Counted from the first letter of the stretch, positions 86-40,736 are shown. The stretch: 41,012 nt of DNA from Candidatus Omnitrophota bacterium (GCA_041308885.1 JBFZAQ010000096.1:1-41012); one strand, 5' to 3'. The notes: a model not told the origin generated them from the letters alone. Made by a program: numbers and translations.

Positions 86-202
86 AAATCCCAATGACCA
101 AGTCCCAAATCCCAATGAATTACCAAATCCCAATGACCAATCTCCAATTGGGATTTGGTAATTGGACATTCATTGGGATTTGGGACTTGGCCATTGGGAT
201 TT
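86..202. repeat. Palindromic intergenic element, NNNCCAA-heptamer family, copy 1
   Basis: Left arm aaatcccaatgaccaagtcccaaatcccaatgaat pairs with right arm attcattgggatttgggacttggccattgggattt. The centre is ccaattgg at 144-151. The element fills the tgt-stop to trmD-start gap. Confidence 0.9.
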
Positions 203-1355
203 AAACCGAGCTATTATTATAACGCTCCAAGAACTCCTTCTTAAACTCGATAAATCTATTCTCGGCGATGGCTTTGCGGATATTGCGCATCAGATCCAGA
301 AAAAAATAGACGTTATGCAACGATACTAAACGCATGCCGAGTATCTCATAAGCATTAAAAAGATGACGCAGGTAGGCGCGGCTAAAATTCCGGCAAGTAT
401 AACAACCGCACTGCGCATCCAAGGGAGAAAAATCCTCGATGTAGGGGGCGTTACGGATCACAAGCTTACCTTCGCTGGTAAAGGCCGTGCCGTTACGGCC
501 ATAGCGAGTAGGCACAACACAGTCAAACATATCTATCCCGCACCCTACTGCCTCAATAATATCCTCGGGAAACCCTACCCCCATCAAGTAACGCGGCTTG
601 TCCTCCGGAAGCTTAGCCGATGTTGCCTCGGCCACTGCATAGCGCAAATTCTTCGGCTCCCCAACCGATACTCCTCCGATGGCATATCCCGAAAAATCCA
701 TCTCCACCAAACGGCTGGCGCATTCCTTACGCAAATCCTCATAGGAAGCCCCTTGGACAATACCGAACAATAACTGCTTACCGCCATACTCATCAACCGC
801 TTCAGAGGAACGCGCCGCTTCCTGCGACCGGCGGGCCCAGCGGATTGTCCGTTCCAAGGCTGAGCGCGCAGCATCCTTACTGCAAGGATAATGCACGCAC
901 TCATCCAACGGCATCATAATATCACTCCCCAGCCCTCTCTGGATGCCAATAACATCTTCGGGAGTAAAAAAATGCCTGAACCCGTCAATATGCGACTGGA
1001 ATTCAACCCCGTCGTCATTGATCTTGCGTAAGAGCGCCAAACTAAATATCTGGTACCCTCCGCTATCAGTCAAAACCGGCTTTTTCCAAGCCATAAACTT
1101 ATGCAATCCTGCGGCCTTACGAATAACTTCCATTCCCGGCCGCAAAAAAACATGATACGCATTCGCCAGGATAATTTGCGCGCCCGCATCCTCAAGGTCA
1201 CGCGGGGATAAAGTCTTCACGGTGGCCTGCGTCCCTACGGGCATAAAACAGGGAGTGTCGATACTGCCGCGTTGAGTCTGGACCCTGCCTAGCCTGGCTT
1301 TGCTGCCGGAATCCGTTGAAAGCAAGATAAAAGTCTGATCTTCCGGCAACGCCAT
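201..1355 (-). CDS. tgt: Queuine tRNA-ribosyltransferase (tRNA-guanine transglycosylase)
   Basis: [12 protein letters not shown] catalytic motif and a CGCYTC...H zinc site, with full-length family resemblance. The track start at 1376 is TTG, so I prefer the ATG at 1355 (MALPEDQ...). Confidence 0.9.
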
Positions 1356-1360
1356 ATTCT

Positions 1361-3904
1361 TTAGCCAGCCTTCCAATTAATTGTATAGACCCGGATAGGG
1401 CCCTGATTATCTTCCAGCTCTTCATTAAAAAGAGACGTGAACGCCGATAAACCCACTCCCTTAAAAAAATAGAGCCGGGAAAACATTGATTGCACCAACT
1501 CCTCATCGCAGACAGCCAAACGGTACGCCTGGCCATCCTGAGACAAAATTACCGAATAATCAACATCACTATCGGCAAATGACGCCTTCTTTAAATCCAC
1601 ACCGTCAAGATAATACATATTTTTAGGGATATGCCACTCTTGGGAAACAGCCTTATAATATTGTACCGAGTGATCAGCCAAATTTACTATAAAACCATTA
1701 TCAAAAGTAAGTATTGAGCCGTGCTGCTCACAGTTCTGCGAGACTGAATAAAATTGCCGGGGCGCGGATATCCAATAGAGAATCTGCTGGCTGGGTAAAG
1801 CGCTCAACAACTCATACAGTTGCTGCGCTTTCTGGATATCATAATGCCGGCTGCCGAGCAGAAACTTGAGAAAGGCTTTCTTTTTCAAGGACTTAAACTT
1901 CTGATAAATATCCGCCTTGAAGAAATCCCACCCGCCGATAAATGAAATACGCGACATTTTACTAAGCAGGCTCGGCTCTACCACCATACACGCTGGCGCA
2001 GGTTGGTATAAGTAACTAAGAAAAAGCTCGCGCTTATTCTCTTCAGGAATATATTTGGCCGCTGCGCTGACAGCCCCTTTGGAATCCTTAATAATAAACT
2101 GATTGATAATCGACAATGCCGCAAAATTGTCGTATCCCTGCTCGCGTAGCAGATCGAAAGCGGCGTTAGCCCCAGAATTAACCATGCGTAATATTCCCAG
2201 CGCCTCTTTTTCGTCGGTAGCTAACAAGGCCCGGGCCATCCAATAAGTTACCGGTTTATCTTGGGTTGCGCCGTCAAATAAGACCCTGCGGTCAGCGGCG
2301 AATTTAAACCAATGGCCGTAGTCCCACCATGAATTAATGATTGCCTCAGACGGAGTTTTTTCTTGAATAGACCCCAGTGCTTTCCACCAGGCGCGGGTCA
2401 TCATCGGAAGGGTATTGCTAAAAACCAGCGATCGCGCCGAGAAAAAATACGTCAGCACCGCTACCGCCAAGCAAGTAACAATACCGGGCCTAATACTCAA
2501 TCTGCCGCCACGCTCCAGCCGCCGGCTAGCCCACTGGATAAAACTGTCCGCCCCGAGCCCGAATGCCACTGACAAAGGGACAACCAGTAAGAGGCTAAGC
2601 CTTACTGCTTTCATCGCCCCGATAAACGCGACACTCATCCAGAGGACAAAGACGAATACGATAAAGGTGAACTCATAAATTATATTCTTCTTGCGGATTA
2701 CCGTCGCCAATAAATAAAGGGCTGCCGTTAACAAGATAATGCTGCCTCCGGCATTCTGGATCACGGCTTGGAAGGGCGCGCTGCGTAATTCCTGAACGGT
2801 AAGAAAAACATTCGGCCAAAACTGACTATCCAGCTGGTCTTTAAGCCAAAACATCTTTAACGGATCAGTGAGAAACCGCGCGGCCACCTCGACTCCGGAA
2901 AAAAAGGATACCCAGCCTAAAGAAAGACCGATAAAAACCGATCCTGACGCGGCGGTTATCCGGGCATAATTATATCTACGCTCAAGCAGTAAATGAATAA
3001 AATAGTAACCTAACCCCACGATAAAAGTGTCAAAGAGCAGCCACCAGATATCCCAGGTATAGGCAAATAAACCCATACCTGCCCCGGCCAGTGCAGCATA
3101 GATCAAGCGTCTAACTCCTGAAAAAGAAGCCCTCAGACTTAAGTATAACGCCCAAACCGCCAACACTGAATATATACCTATATATACGTCATTATCGAAC
3201 CAACCGGCTTGGCTGCGGAGCAAAAAAAGCGGGCTTAAACCCGCGCACAAAGCGGCGGCAAAACCCGCGGTTGAATTTGCTCCCACTTTCAAGGACTGGG
3301 TGAAGAAAAAAATCACTATCAGTAAAATACTCGACAAGACTACCGGTAGATAGAATAAAACAACGGTTAAAGGAACCCCGGGATAAAACATATGGATCAA
3401 CCGATACGCGGCTACGCCGACATAAACATGAACATTCTTATGGAGAGTCTTGGTAGCCGGATAACCCAACGGCGCGCACATATACCGGTCATACAGCCGC
3501 GAGCCTTGATACTCATAAGCGTTTCCGCCATCCTTTAAACTATTACGCACAATCCGGGCCCAATGGTAAGAATCAACTTCCAATAAAAAAGGAAAACCCG
3601 CGTCATCGAGATACTTGCTCCGGCAATCTGCATATTTCCGGGATACATCCCGCGCAAAACCTAATTTGGGATCACTCCGGGAACTTTTATATAATTCATT
3701 CTGCAACGCAGCCTGAACAATCGAGCCGTCTTGTGGATACATCTGCTTTGCTAAGCCCTGCGTCTTATTGACCAGATCGACTTCGGCCTTAAAACGGGCT
3801 TCGTTCTTACAAGCGGACATCCGTAAGGGCCCTAAACGTATAAAGACGTTTATCCCCAGGGCAATCACTAATAAAAATATCCCCAGTATATATTTTTTAT
3901 TCAT
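1361..3904 (-). CDS. STT3/PglB/AglB-type oligosaccharyltransferase homologue (polytopic membrane domain plus periplasmic domain)
   Basis: Contains WWDYGHW (WWDYG motif), [11 protein letters not shown] (first acidic loop motif, compare NDGYAF in PglB), GWFDNDVY (second DxD, compare YYDTDML) and TVQEL (TIXE/SVSE-type motif). There are about 13 hydrophobic segments before a ~350-aa soluble C-terminal domain. Confidence 0.75.
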
Positions 3905-3906
3905 GG

Positions 3907-39621: not shown

Positions 39622-39647
39622 GTTATGAGTTATGAGTTATGAGTTTA
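39622..39647. repeat. Tandem GTTATGA heptamers in the kdsD-kdsC gap
   Basis: Sequence gttatgagttatgagttatgagtttac. Confidence 0.75.
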
Positions 39648-39648
39648 C

Positions 39649-40611
39649 TTAAACTAGGCCGGCGCGCAACAAATCCTGCACATCCAGCAGGCCTATAGGC
39701 TTACCCAATTCATCGACCACCGGGACTTCATCTATTTTTTTGGTTTCCAGCAAATGCATAGCTTCGGCTGCCAAGGTGTTCTTTTTCACCACCAAGGGAT
39801 TGCGCGTCATAACCTTATCTATTAACCGATTAGGCAAGCCCGTATCACTCTCGAGGTGCCGGCGCAAATCTCCATCGGTAAAAATACCCACCAGCTTGCC
39901 GGATTTATTAACGATAGAAACGCAACCTGCCCGGGCTTGGGTTATAATCAACAAAACCTGCGCAACCTTAGAATCTTGACGGGCTACCGGATTATTCCTG
40001 CCGGTGCGCATAAGATCTTCAACTTTAAGCAGTAAACGCTTGCCCAAAGCGCCGCCCGGATGAAAAAAAGCAAAATCCTTCTCTTTAAAGCCTTTTAATT
40101 CCAATAAACAAACCGCTAAAGCATCAGTCATGGCCAAGGTAGCCGTTGTCGAAGCCGTCGGGGCTAAGCCTAAAGGGCAAGCCTCTTTTTTTACCGCCAC
40201 ACTCAAAACTACGTCGCTGTATTGAGCCAACAAGGACTTCGGATTACCGGTCAAGCCGATGACCCGCGCTCCGATCTTCTTTAACAAGGGCAGCAACTGG
40301 CGAATCTCCTCGCTGTTACCGCTGTTGGAAATAATGACGATTATGTCATCGGGAGTTACCCGGCCTAAATCGCCGTGTACTGCCTCCGTAAGATGCAGAT
40401 ATAGGCTGGGAGTTCCCGTTGACGCTAAAGTCGCGGAAAACTTCTGGGCGATGATCCCGGTTTTACCCATGCCGCTGACTACCACCCGGCCTTTAGCCCC
40501 CAGCAATAAATTGACCGCTTTCTCGAATTTAGCGTCAATTGACTCTTTGAGCTGCCGAATGGCTGCGGATTCAATATCTAAGACCTCTTTGGCGCGTTTT
40601 AAAATATCCAT
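39649..40611 (-). CDS. kdsD: Arabinose-5-phosphate isomerase (KdsD/KpsF; SIS plus tandem CBS domains)
   Basis: SIS motif VVVSGMGKTGIIAQK and two C-terminal CBS repeats. The start is re-called to ATG 40611; the track's first 21 codons translate the repeat. Confidence 0.88.
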   Translation of the reverse strand: MDILKRAKEVLDIESAAIRQLKESIDAKFEKAVNLLLGAKGRVVVSGMGKTGIIAQKFSATLASTGTPSLYLHLTEAVHGDLGRVTPDDIIVIISNSGNSEEIRQLLPLLKKIGARVIGLTGNPKSLLAQYSDVVLSVAVKKEACPLGLAPTASTTATLAMTDALAVCLLELKGFKEKDFAFFHPGGALGKRLLLKVEDLMRTGRNNPVARQDSKVAQVLLIITQARAGCVSIVNKSGKLVGIFTDGDLRRHLESDTGLPNRLIDKVMTRNPLVVKKNTLAAEAMHLLETKKIDEVPVVDELGKPIGLLDVQDLLRAGLV

Positions 40612-40633
40612 AGCGCTCGACCTTATATTCTTG

Positions 40634-40736
40634 AAATCCCAATGACCAAATCCCAAGCCCCAATGAACGACCAATTACCAATTCTCAATTGAGATTTGGT
40701 TATTGGAAATTCATTGGGATTTGGAAATTGGGATTT
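40634..40736. repeat. NNNCCAA-heptamer palindromic element, copy 7
   Basis: Sequence aaatcccaatgaccaaatcccaagccccaatgaac...aaattcattgggatttggaaattgggattt. Confidence 0.9.

Follow-up and report, generated by a model that had tools for sequence, protein, structure and literature searches.

In many bacterial genomes, no long simple repeat is more abundant than the heptanucleotide kind, whose cause and role have been an open question since about 1990. Other intergenic hairpin repeats, such as repetitive extragenic palindromic sequences and bacterial interspersed mosaic elements (REP/BIME), Correia/NEMIS elements, and enterobacterial repetitive intergenic consensus sequences (ERIC), are co-transcribed and alter mRNA processing or stability; Correia elements are targets of RNase III, and REPs protect upstream mRNA. 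The short tandemly repeated repetitive (STRR) sequences of cyanobacteria consist of 7-bp repeats that form a hairpin between hupS and hupL, for which a role in transcript stability or translational coupling has been proposed (PMC2670836). In the Coxiella 23S rRNA intervening sequence (IVS), which carries an S23p open reading frame (ORF), terminal repeats form a stem that is cut by RNase III, and tandem GACAGAT heptamers at the cleavage site vary in number between strains (PMC4990558). For the TAACTGA heptamers of Beggiatoaceae, cyanobacteria, and Bacteroidetes, binding of S1, Csp, or CsrA upstream of start codons has been proposed (MacGregor 2015, PMC4679880); in BOGUAY, TAACTGA forms 169 direct sets and one indirect set (PMC4679880). 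GGGNATC heptamer repeats have been described in Xanthomonas and Nostoc (Rehm 2015, PMC4692102). Here, we describe arrays of an NNNCCAA heptamer that occur at seven loci in a 41,012-nucleotide stretch of DNA from a Candidatus Omnitrophota bacterium (GCA_041308885.1, JBFZAQ010000096.1:1-41012; hereafter, the window), where they form palindromic repeats of 60-120 nt between neighbouring housekeeping genes.

A reading of the DNA alone (hereafter, the sequence-only reading) had listed seven loci, all of which are present, at coordinates that were exact or off by a few bases. The copies, designated E1 to E7, are as follows (plus-strand coordinates; all flanking genes on the minus strand; folding free energy, dG, and z are given for the two strands):

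E1, 86-202: full palindrome of 8 + 7 heptamers with no loop, from the tgt stop codon (TAA 201-203) to the ATG of the next gene (70-68); arms of 56 nt, 86 per cent complementary; dG -81.8/-76.4 kcal/mol, z -11.4/-11.6.
E2, 12358-12437: truncated, with a complete CCAA arm and a degenerate stub of the TTGG arm, from the infB stop codon (TAG 12439-12441) to the trpS start (12347); folds no better than shuffles, z -0.24/-1.8.
E3, 20045-20164: palindrome with a 22-nt centre, from the rseP stop codon (TGA 20159-20161, in the last TTGGTCA heptamer) to ispG (probable ATG 20037); dG -42.7/-46.2 kcal/mol, z -5.0/-6.2.
E4, 21264-21327: left arm short (three heptamers) and right arm full, from the dxr stop codon (TGA 21322-21324, in the last heptamer) to the rseP start (21238); z -4.6/-4.2.
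E5, 30758-30869: full palindrome, from the stop codon of a UshA/5'-nucleotidase-like gene (TGA 30864-30866, in the last heptamer) to the ATG (30740) of a homocitrate/isopropylmalate (IPM)-synthase-like gene; dG -57.6/-52.2 kcal/mol, z -7.3/-5.8.
E6, 36299-36409: full palindrome of 7 + 7 heptamers with the centre CCAATTGG, from the tig stop codon (TAA 36413-36415) to the clpP ATG (36282); dG -51.8/-47.7 kcal/mol, z -7.1/-5.8.
E7, 40634-40736: full palindrome, from the kdsA stop codon (TAA 40744-40746) to kdsD (ATG about 40611); dG -50.4/-49.7 kcal/mol, z -7.3/-7.9.

Because all the flanking genes are co-directional on the minus strand, the earlier naming of 'left' and 'right' arms is reversed relative to the mRNA. 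In gene order, the NCBIfam assignments give the junctions tgt/E1; infB/E2/trpS; dxr/E4/rseP/E3/ispG; tig/E6/clpP; and kdsA/E7/kdsD, with E5 following the UshA/5'-nucleotidase-like gene and preceding the homocitrate/isopropylmalate-synthase-like gene; the gene names proposed earlier (tgt, infB/trpS, rseP/ispG, dxr/rseP, tig/clpP, and kdsA/kdsD) are thereby confirmed. The gene after E1 is a candidate trmD, as its 23-residue N-terminus (MRIDIITIFPKMF...) looks like that of TrmD.

In the window, the pattern CCAAN3CCAAN3CCAA has 28 matches, against 0.03 expected from dinucleotide-preserving shuffles, and the 20-base hallmark CCAAN3CCAATGAAN3CCAAN3CCAA has 10, against 0 expected. An nhmmer profile of the arm recovers 13 arms, every one of them at one of the seven loci, with no further match in the 41 kb; the list of seven is therefore complete for the NNNCCAA family in the window. 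At these loci, the plus strand reads as a run of CCAA-ending heptamers followed by a mirror run starting with TTGG. From 12 arms brought into the same orientation and anchored on TGAA, we derived a common layout of approximately four NNNCCAA units, TGAA, approximately three units, and then the mirror image with TTCA; the arm consensus is close to ATCCCAA TGACCAA ATCCCAA ATCCCAA TGAA TTACCAA TAACCAA ATCCCAA. In three copies, the segment from TGAA to TTCA is exactly 42 nt long, corresponding to 3 + 3 units with no loop, and by direct reading the element ends are AAAT(C/G)(C/A)CCAA ... TTGG..ATTT. The CCAA cores are approximately 7-fold better conserved than the NNN triplets (16/288 vs 93/252 mismatches to the consensus; Fisher P = 2e-20). 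The triplets are drawn from a limited set (ATC, TGA, TTA, TAA, TTT, GCC, TGT, and a few others), and arms frequently differ by whole-unit shifts, a combination that fits gain and loss of units by slippage.

The family is seemingly an undescribed variant of the heptamer hairpin repeats. Searched against Rfam 15 at a permissive threshold, the window returned only plant miRNA-precursor models, which were below threshold and match any long hairpin, and four element-rich loci gave no matches at the gathering threshold. We found no description of an NNNCCAA/TGAA palindrome in the literature that was searched, which is not proof that none exists.

As the sequence-only reading had it, each element fills the gap between the stop codon of one gene and the ribosome-binding site (RBS) of the next co-directional gene. 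Either the stop codon of the upstream gene overlaps with the element or no more than 7 nt separate the two, and by direct reading the next start codon is found about 7-29 nt past the other end. E3, E4, and E5 supply the stop codon of the upstream gene, in that the TGA of the terminal unit (...AAA TGA CCAA) is the TCA of the last TTGGTCA. Longest-ORF calls extend into elements, with TTG or ATG at 20094, 30821, 36339, and 40674; family alignments place the true starts downstream of these positions. The practical consequence, that gene callers extend ORFs into the arms, also applies to the 'MKLQAPTSKLQRSSK' N-termini of many database proteins (see below).

Comparison with relatives shows that the junctions can be much shorter. 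An exact look-up of the PurA protein of the window returned no record. This protein is 66-70 per cent identical to proteins of Omnitrophota metagenome-assembled genomes (MAGs), with one match of 93 per cent on a 2-kb JGI contig (L106; loci in other genomes carry L numbers throughout). A syntenic locus, L107, has the gene order kdsA-kdsD … lptB-tig-clpP … serA-HCS-purA … uppS-cdsA-dxr-rseP-ispG, with gaps of 16 nt (tig-clpP), 10 nt (dxr-rseP), 8 nt (rseP-ispG), and 25 nt (serA-HCS); its kdsA-kdsD gap of 34 nt is itself GTATCAC x4.6. Three further relatives, whose RseP is 58 per cent identical (the closest match to RseP in the metagenome scan), also have junctions of approximately 10 nt or shorter around rseP. 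In all, the syntenic relatives with short gaps are L107, L108, and L109/L110. Because the same junctions measure only 8-34 nt in relatives, the NNNCCAA copies are gains in this lineage. The concern that the contig might be a chimera or a collapsed repeat is not borne out: intact, syntenic genes flank the arrays and no two of the seven copies are identical, so the arrays are not an artefact.

Long hairpins form in six copies, whichever strand is folded (dG -26 to -82 kcal/mol, z -4.2 to -11.6), with 0 of 200 shuffles as stable, and for these the earlier claim of a palindromic hairpin stands; it fails for E2, which is one-armed and has no significant hairpin. Contiguous pairing extends over about 50 bp in E1 and 11-17 bp in the others. 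At the level of the family, pairing is kept, with every CCAA arm complementing every TTGG arm. Because co-directional genes flank each copy and leave no room for a promoter or terminator, we infer that the copies are transcribed within the mRNA. Outward promoters considered at E1 and E3 (TTGGGA-17-TATCAT, TATATT) were rejected because 9/12 consensus matches are at chance level, and the one at E3 also because its geometry would place the transcription start within the ORF.

It is highly improbable that the hairpins are intergenic transcription terminators or attenuators. They are strong, and on the coding strand AUUUUAU follows E1 and E3. However, a terminator consensus scan that covered E1, E3, E5, E6, and E7 (E2 lay outside the scanned ranges) made no terminator-like call on the coding strand at any of these five copies, which agrees with the sequence-only reading that the elements are not classical terminators. 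Moreover, the stems are A+U-rich and 40-56 bp long, most lack a U-tract, and the copies are situated inside conserved strings of essential genes, where the gaps of relatives are 8-16 nt. Nor do the elements resemble the canonical intrinsic terminator that was called at 26751-26735 on the minus strand (AGGGGATTATATCCCCT followed by TTTTTTT), between a 130-aa ORF and a DUF4912 gene. That terminator shows what terminators in this organism look like.

The reading that we favour, at a probability of roughly one-half, is that the elements are cargo-less foldback repeats similar to STRR and IVS, which would be co-transcribed and form hairpins by which the insert is looped out of the mRNA. The arms would pair in the mRNA and loop out the 60-120-nt insert, so that the stop codon of the upstream gene, at the stem's 5' base, would come to lie beside the downstream RBS at its 3' base, as in the insert-free relatives. 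With the stop codon and RBS thus brought together, tight junctions would tolerate the insert and translational coupling could persist. As is established for translational coupling, a ribosome terminating at the stop codon would melt the bottom 12-15 pairs of the stem, making the initiation region downstream accessible. RNA processing or stabilization may be affected as well: a long imperfect duplex would be a barrier to 3' exonucleases and, where 15-50 pairs are contiguous, a likely substrate of RNase III. Slippage would gain, lose, and permute units, keeping the CCAA period and scrambling the NNN triplets.

Several observations weigh against this reading. Stability shows no strand asymmetry, the mRNA strand being the more stable in four of the six hairpin copies (sums of -311 vs -300 kcal/mol); as a sign of selection at the RNA level, this measure was set aside as not informative. 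In the window, a copy's own arms pair at -55 or -56 kcal/mol, compared to -60 kcal/mol for arms of different copies; likewise, own arms are no better paired than foreign ones in six other genomes. Mirrored NNN triplets in the window are 33-60 per cent complementary, equal to shuffled pairs. Therefore, there is no selection for pairing copy by copy, and covariation of the arms within copies, which we considered as a signature, is absent in the window and in the six other genomes. One-armed arrays exist (E2, arrays in Nostoc, and GTATCAC x4.6 in L107). The Shine-Dalgarno sequence, said to be left free by every element, is seen as GGAG-type sequences at E4, E5 (AGGAG upstream of ATG 30740), and E6 (GGAGG upstream of the clpP ATG 36282), whereas at E1-E3 the start codon follows after only 7-15 nt, and no clear Shine-Dalgarno sequence is visible. 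Finally, the conservation of CCAA and TGAA across phyla exceeds what a plain hairpin needs, which hints at recognition by a protein or a copying machinery.

That conservation emerges from an exact scan for the hallmark in GTDB species-representative genomes (1.2e12 positions; phylum by record title), which found it in at least 105 loci, against approximately one expected by chance according to our estimate. The element was thought to be specific to this lineage; instead, the same core, TGAA/TTCA punctuation, and palindromic layout occur in these loci across at least eight phyla. Among the matches listed are Planctomycetota (including Kuenenia, Gemmataceae, Pirellulaceae, and Phycisphaerales), Verrucomicrobiota, Vicinamibacterales (Acidobacteriota), Omnitrophota (L061, L073, and L081), and Patescibacteria, and the remaining titles include Eisenbacteria, Aminicenantes, Nostoc, Anabaena, and Heteroscytonema, among others; several genomes hold 4-9 of the listed loci each. 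Cyanobacterial matches, which include the Nostoc/Anabaena loci L015, L065, L071, and L099, are mostly one-armed direct arrays. In the at least 105 loci, a chain detector classified 86 of 149 arrays as palindromic pairs, always with the CCAA arm first and the TTGG arm second, and up to six palindromic elements occur in 8 kb (L049). In the other phyla, core, period, and 4-nt punctuation all persist, the NNN composition tracks genome G+C (e.g. CTCCCAA, GCTCCAA), and the centre is often an unrelated loop of 10-60 nt. A crude stop-to-stop ORF picker placed 48 elements between co-directional, 6 between convergent, and 9 between divergent ORFs, with 22 of the 86 falling 'inside' an ORF; where a stop codon faces the element, its distance from it clusters at -3 to +17 nt. 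Phages were rejected as vectors, with only two hallmark matches in the 2.9 million viral contigs of IMG/VR.

Two further features of these loci were observed. L009, L012, L026, L031, L041, L060, L103, and L105 come from G+C-rich, element-rich MAGs (CAZCBE01, CAZOCL01), whose title 'uncultured Klebsiella sp.' looks like mislabelled taxonomy. Many copies in Verrucomicrobia and Planctomycetota (L069, L074, L101, L038, L018, L029, and L088) have asymmetric punctuation, with CCAGAGAA or CCAAGGAA in one arm and TTCATTGG in the other; such asymmetry would put a conserved A-A or G-A mismatch into the stem and could give it a polarity.

In Verrucomicrobia, the family also has a gene-enclosing form, in which NNNCCAA and TTGGNNN arms surround a gene of about 120 aa from the PF05635 family (23S rRNA IVS protein, a four-helix bundle):

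Arm-PF05635-arm loci: L096:5995-6550; L119:5950-6560; L120:5878-6432; L049:2759-3480.

The junction is conserved and runs from DHO_dh (dihydroorotate/dihydropyrimidine-dehydrogenase-like) through arm, four-helix-bundle gene, and arm to Aldedh (aldehyde dehydrogenase). In L096, L119, and L120, the arms are 450 nt apart and identical as reverse complements over 36-45 nt, and between genomes they have changed in pairs (TGAA/TTCA to AGAA/TTCT, GCT to GCA in both arms, and CCAG/CTGG). Approximately 70 per cent of the 120 best database homologues of the enclosed protein start with 'MKLQAPTSKLQRSSK', which is the translation of CCA-ATG-AAG-CTC-CAA…; the gene caller therefore started at the ATG inside the hallmark. 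A hidden Markov model (HMM) of the protein subfamily matches 4 of about 120 loci, all at the DHO_dh/four-helix-bundle/Aldedh junction, and this restriction to a single conserved junction indicates an orthologous insertion rather than a multi-copy mobile gene. As a mobile partner of the elements, the PF05635 gene was accordingly rejected, since the HMM finds no other element-bearing locus. No transposase lies between arms in the at least 105 loci, the enclosed genes being the PF05635 gene (L096, L049) and a small unannotated ORF (L092), and the window contains no four-helix-bundle gene. The NNNCCAA hairpins give a lead towards the biology of IVSs and four-helix-bundle proteins.

Recognition by a protein is the core of one alternative, which we regard as unlikely: the element would be a periodic binding array whose CCAA (UUGG/TTGG) motif is read every 7 nt by an oligomeric or multi-domain protein, with the palindrome being secondary. 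Candidate readers are cold-shock-domain proteins, S1, a four-helix-bundle S23p/Avd-like pentamer, and a nucleoid protein. Such an array would account for the approximately 7-fold better conservation of the cores relative to the triplets, for the persistence of core and TGAA across phyla while NNN drifts with genome G+C, for the lack of special matching between a copy's own arms, and for one-armed arrays directly upstream of starts (E2; L107 139-172). The enclosure of a four-helix-bundle gene in Verrucomicrobia and the proposal that S1, Csp, or CsrA binds TAACTGA arrays (MacGregor 2015, PMC4679880) also point in this direction. However, the window is without a four-helix-bundle gene; the palindromic arrangement of 86 of the 149 arrays, invariably with the CCAA arm first, is not needed for pure binding, and the paired changes in the gene-enclosing form preserve complementarity.

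A broader proposal, which we consider decidedly improbable, is that the elements constitute a pan-phylum IVS-like class, centred on the PVC group and located in mRNA junctions, in which a conserved trans factor reads the CCAA period and TGAA and both propagates and uses the elements. Candidates for such a factor are a four-helix-bundle S23p/Avd-like pentamer and other nucleic-acid binders with a heptamer footprint. If this were true, the elements would be modular sites for intercistronic RNA processing or coupling, and the S23p family and bacterial heptamer repeats would share one function.

The seven copies are not an isolated system of one palindromic element, as they had been presented. Tandem Repeats Finder and an inverted-repeat scan revealed at least five more intergenic hairpins of period 7 or 8, built from other units (z -5.5 to -7.8), besides one-armed arrays:

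23973-24043: TTAGGTT/AACCTAA heptamer hairpin upstream of uppS; z -6.0.
29356-29504: TGTGTAA/TTACACA heptamer hairpin upstream of purA; z -7.1.
32542-32637: GACGCAA/TTGCGTC heptamer hairpin immediately following the serA stop codon (32651); dG -52.3, z -7.8.
34271-34427: NNATCAG/CTGATNN hairpin of 7-8-mers between serA and an aminotransferase gene; 64-nt arms, z -5.5.
35595-35674: GTCTATA/TATAGAC heptamer hairpin between clpP and an aminotransferase gene; z -6.2.
17662-17683, 37309-37343, and 39621-39645: heptamer or octamer arrays with a single arm, each directly upstream of a start codon.

Thus, the window has at least six unit families, and most of its junctions longer than 30 nt are occupied by heptamer arrays. 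L107 has hairpins of its own, with TTAAATGG/CCATTTAA present twice and a GTATCAN/CTGATAC hairpin upstream of uppS, in the same gap as the TTAGGTT hairpin of the window. The TGTGTAA hairpin upstream of purA is kept in L106, at 93 per cent PurA identity, with many changes. Given such differing and fast-changing hairpins at the same gaps, we conclude that the junctions are recurrently occupied by fast-evolving heptamer hairpins.

Some additional observations concern these arrays. The loop of the GACGCAA hairpin holds GGAGG and a possible TTG start for the 5'-nucleotidase-like (UshA-like) gene, and its 3' arm would encode signal-peptide-like N-terminal residues of that gene, which is absent from the syntenic L107, where serA is directly followed by the HCS-like gene. 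A perfect one-armed ACGCAAT x4.3 array is found inside the 3' part of ispG (L107:20162-20191), and the one-armed arrays of the window and L107 resemble the TAACTGA arrays described for Beggiatoaceae.

Could the copies be selfish or neutral foldback DNA, similar to miniature inverted-repeat transposable elements (MITEs), that is spread by an enzyme acting in trans and survives where it is harmless, with no function for the host? The lineage-specific gains, the truncated copies E2 and E4, and the absence of compensation within copies would all be expected, as would the rapid change of the purA-upstream hairpin between relatives at 93 per cent PurA identity. Orientation is not fixed either: the central heptamer of E2, TGTCTAA, is the reverse complement of that of E5, and the two copies are therefore opposite in orientation. 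The arms do act as long inverted repeats, to which the flanking A/T runs also belong, but no target-site duplication is seen by eye at the flanks in the window, and no autonomous partner was found in the at least 105 loci. The hallmark is also almost absent from viral contigs (two matches), and the conserved core and cross-phylum layout are hard to square with neutral decay. Moreover, the presence of different unit families at the same junction in different genomes suggests that junctions favour such structures. On balance, selfish or neutral DNA seems to us an unlikely explanation.

The rest of the window contains features other than the heptamer hairpins. A separate repeat system with units of about 125-150 nt occupies 7900-9530, with direct copies at 7927-8050/8229-8352 and 9103-9223/9363-9483 and inverted copies at 8110-8262 vs 9079-9230 (85-86 per cent complementary). 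Between these repeats lies a 172-aa ORF (8358-8876, minus strand), for which neither Pfam nor NCBIfam gave a match, and the segment could be invertible or mobile. What looks like a toxin-antitoxin pair (6879-7570), consisting of an excisionase-family DNA-binding gene (7301-7570) and, after it, a Doc-family toxin gene (6879-7301), adjoins queH (6302-6874) within a queuosine neighbourhood (tgt, queA, and queH). A non-coding block downstream of purA, conserved in relatives of 93 and 70 per cent PurA identity (L106:1400-1450; L107:11330-11380), contains a promoter-like TTGACT-17-TGnTATAGT at 28031-28059 (minus strand) that probably serves an OmpA/MotB-like gene.

The variant is sharply defined and easily searched for, with its CCAA core, variable triplet, single TGAA, and mirror arm, and it packs the junctions of essential operons. 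Its recurrence from Omnitrophota to Planctomycetota, Verrucomicrobiota, and Acidobacteriota makes several questions testable: whether the hairpins are cleaved, whether they affect mRNA stability and coupling, what reads CCAA, and whether the elements are kin to IVSs.

Among known systems, REP/BIME, Correia/NEMIS, and ERIC elements are similarly small palindromes in operon junctions that fold in the mRNA. By contrast, there is no kinship in sequence or architecture: the arms described here are built of heptamers, with no GTAG/CGTC head and no TA duplication seen. The earlier label 'REP/BIME-like or MITE-like' is a fair functional analogy for a dispersed extragenic hairpin family and does not extend to membership in REP, from which size and the missing GTAG/CGTC head separate it. 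We see very little chance that the copies are REP/BIME-type elements mobilized by a REP-associated tyrosine transposase (RAYT, of the Y1 HUH type) encoded elsewhere. They are extragenic, palindromic, multi-copy, and without target-site duplication, and like many REPs they lie between co-directional genes; however, at 60-117 nt they exceed the 20-40 bp of REPs, and no RAYT, Y1 transposase, or IS200-type gene is present among the ORFs of the 41-kb window.

The TAACTGA and GGGNATC arrays share with those of the window a position between aligned ORFs near start or stop codons, a patchy distribution across phyla, and the lack of a known mechanism of spread. Unlike the NNNCCAA arrays, which are inverted pairs of a degenerate unit, they are direct repeats of one fixed heptamer.

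The 23S rRNA IVSs resemble the elements in that a terminal complementary stem loops an insert out of a functional transcript, and they resemble the Verrucomicrobia form in having a PF05635/S23p gene between the arms of the stem. The copies in the window differ in being located in mRNA junctions rather than in helices 25 or 45 of the 23S rRNA and in having no ORF; an Rfam scan found no rRNA in the window, and all copies lie between protein-coding genes.

Cyanobacterial STRR sequences have the most in common with the arrays of the window: tandem heptamers, several unit families per genome, intergenic location, and hairpins between genes that are, or in the window probably are, co-transcribed. 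The unit TTGGTCA is that reported for STRR2 (Mazel et al. 1990). The NNNCCAA family is distinguished by its variable NNN and fixed CCAA, its TGAA/TTCA punctuation, and its layout of approximately 4 + 3 units. Its host also differs, being a member of the Omnitrophota according to PurA and gene order, whereas STRR sequences belong to heterocystous cyanobacteria, and the family further extends to the PVC group and Acidobacteriota. Membership in a broad heptamer-hairpin class that comprises cyanobacterial STRR, the stem region of 23S IVSs, and the other unit families of the window best explains these likenesses. Heptamer hairpin repeats are already known as a kind; new here are the NNNCCAA/TGAA palindrome variant and its unexpectedly wide phylogenetic spread.

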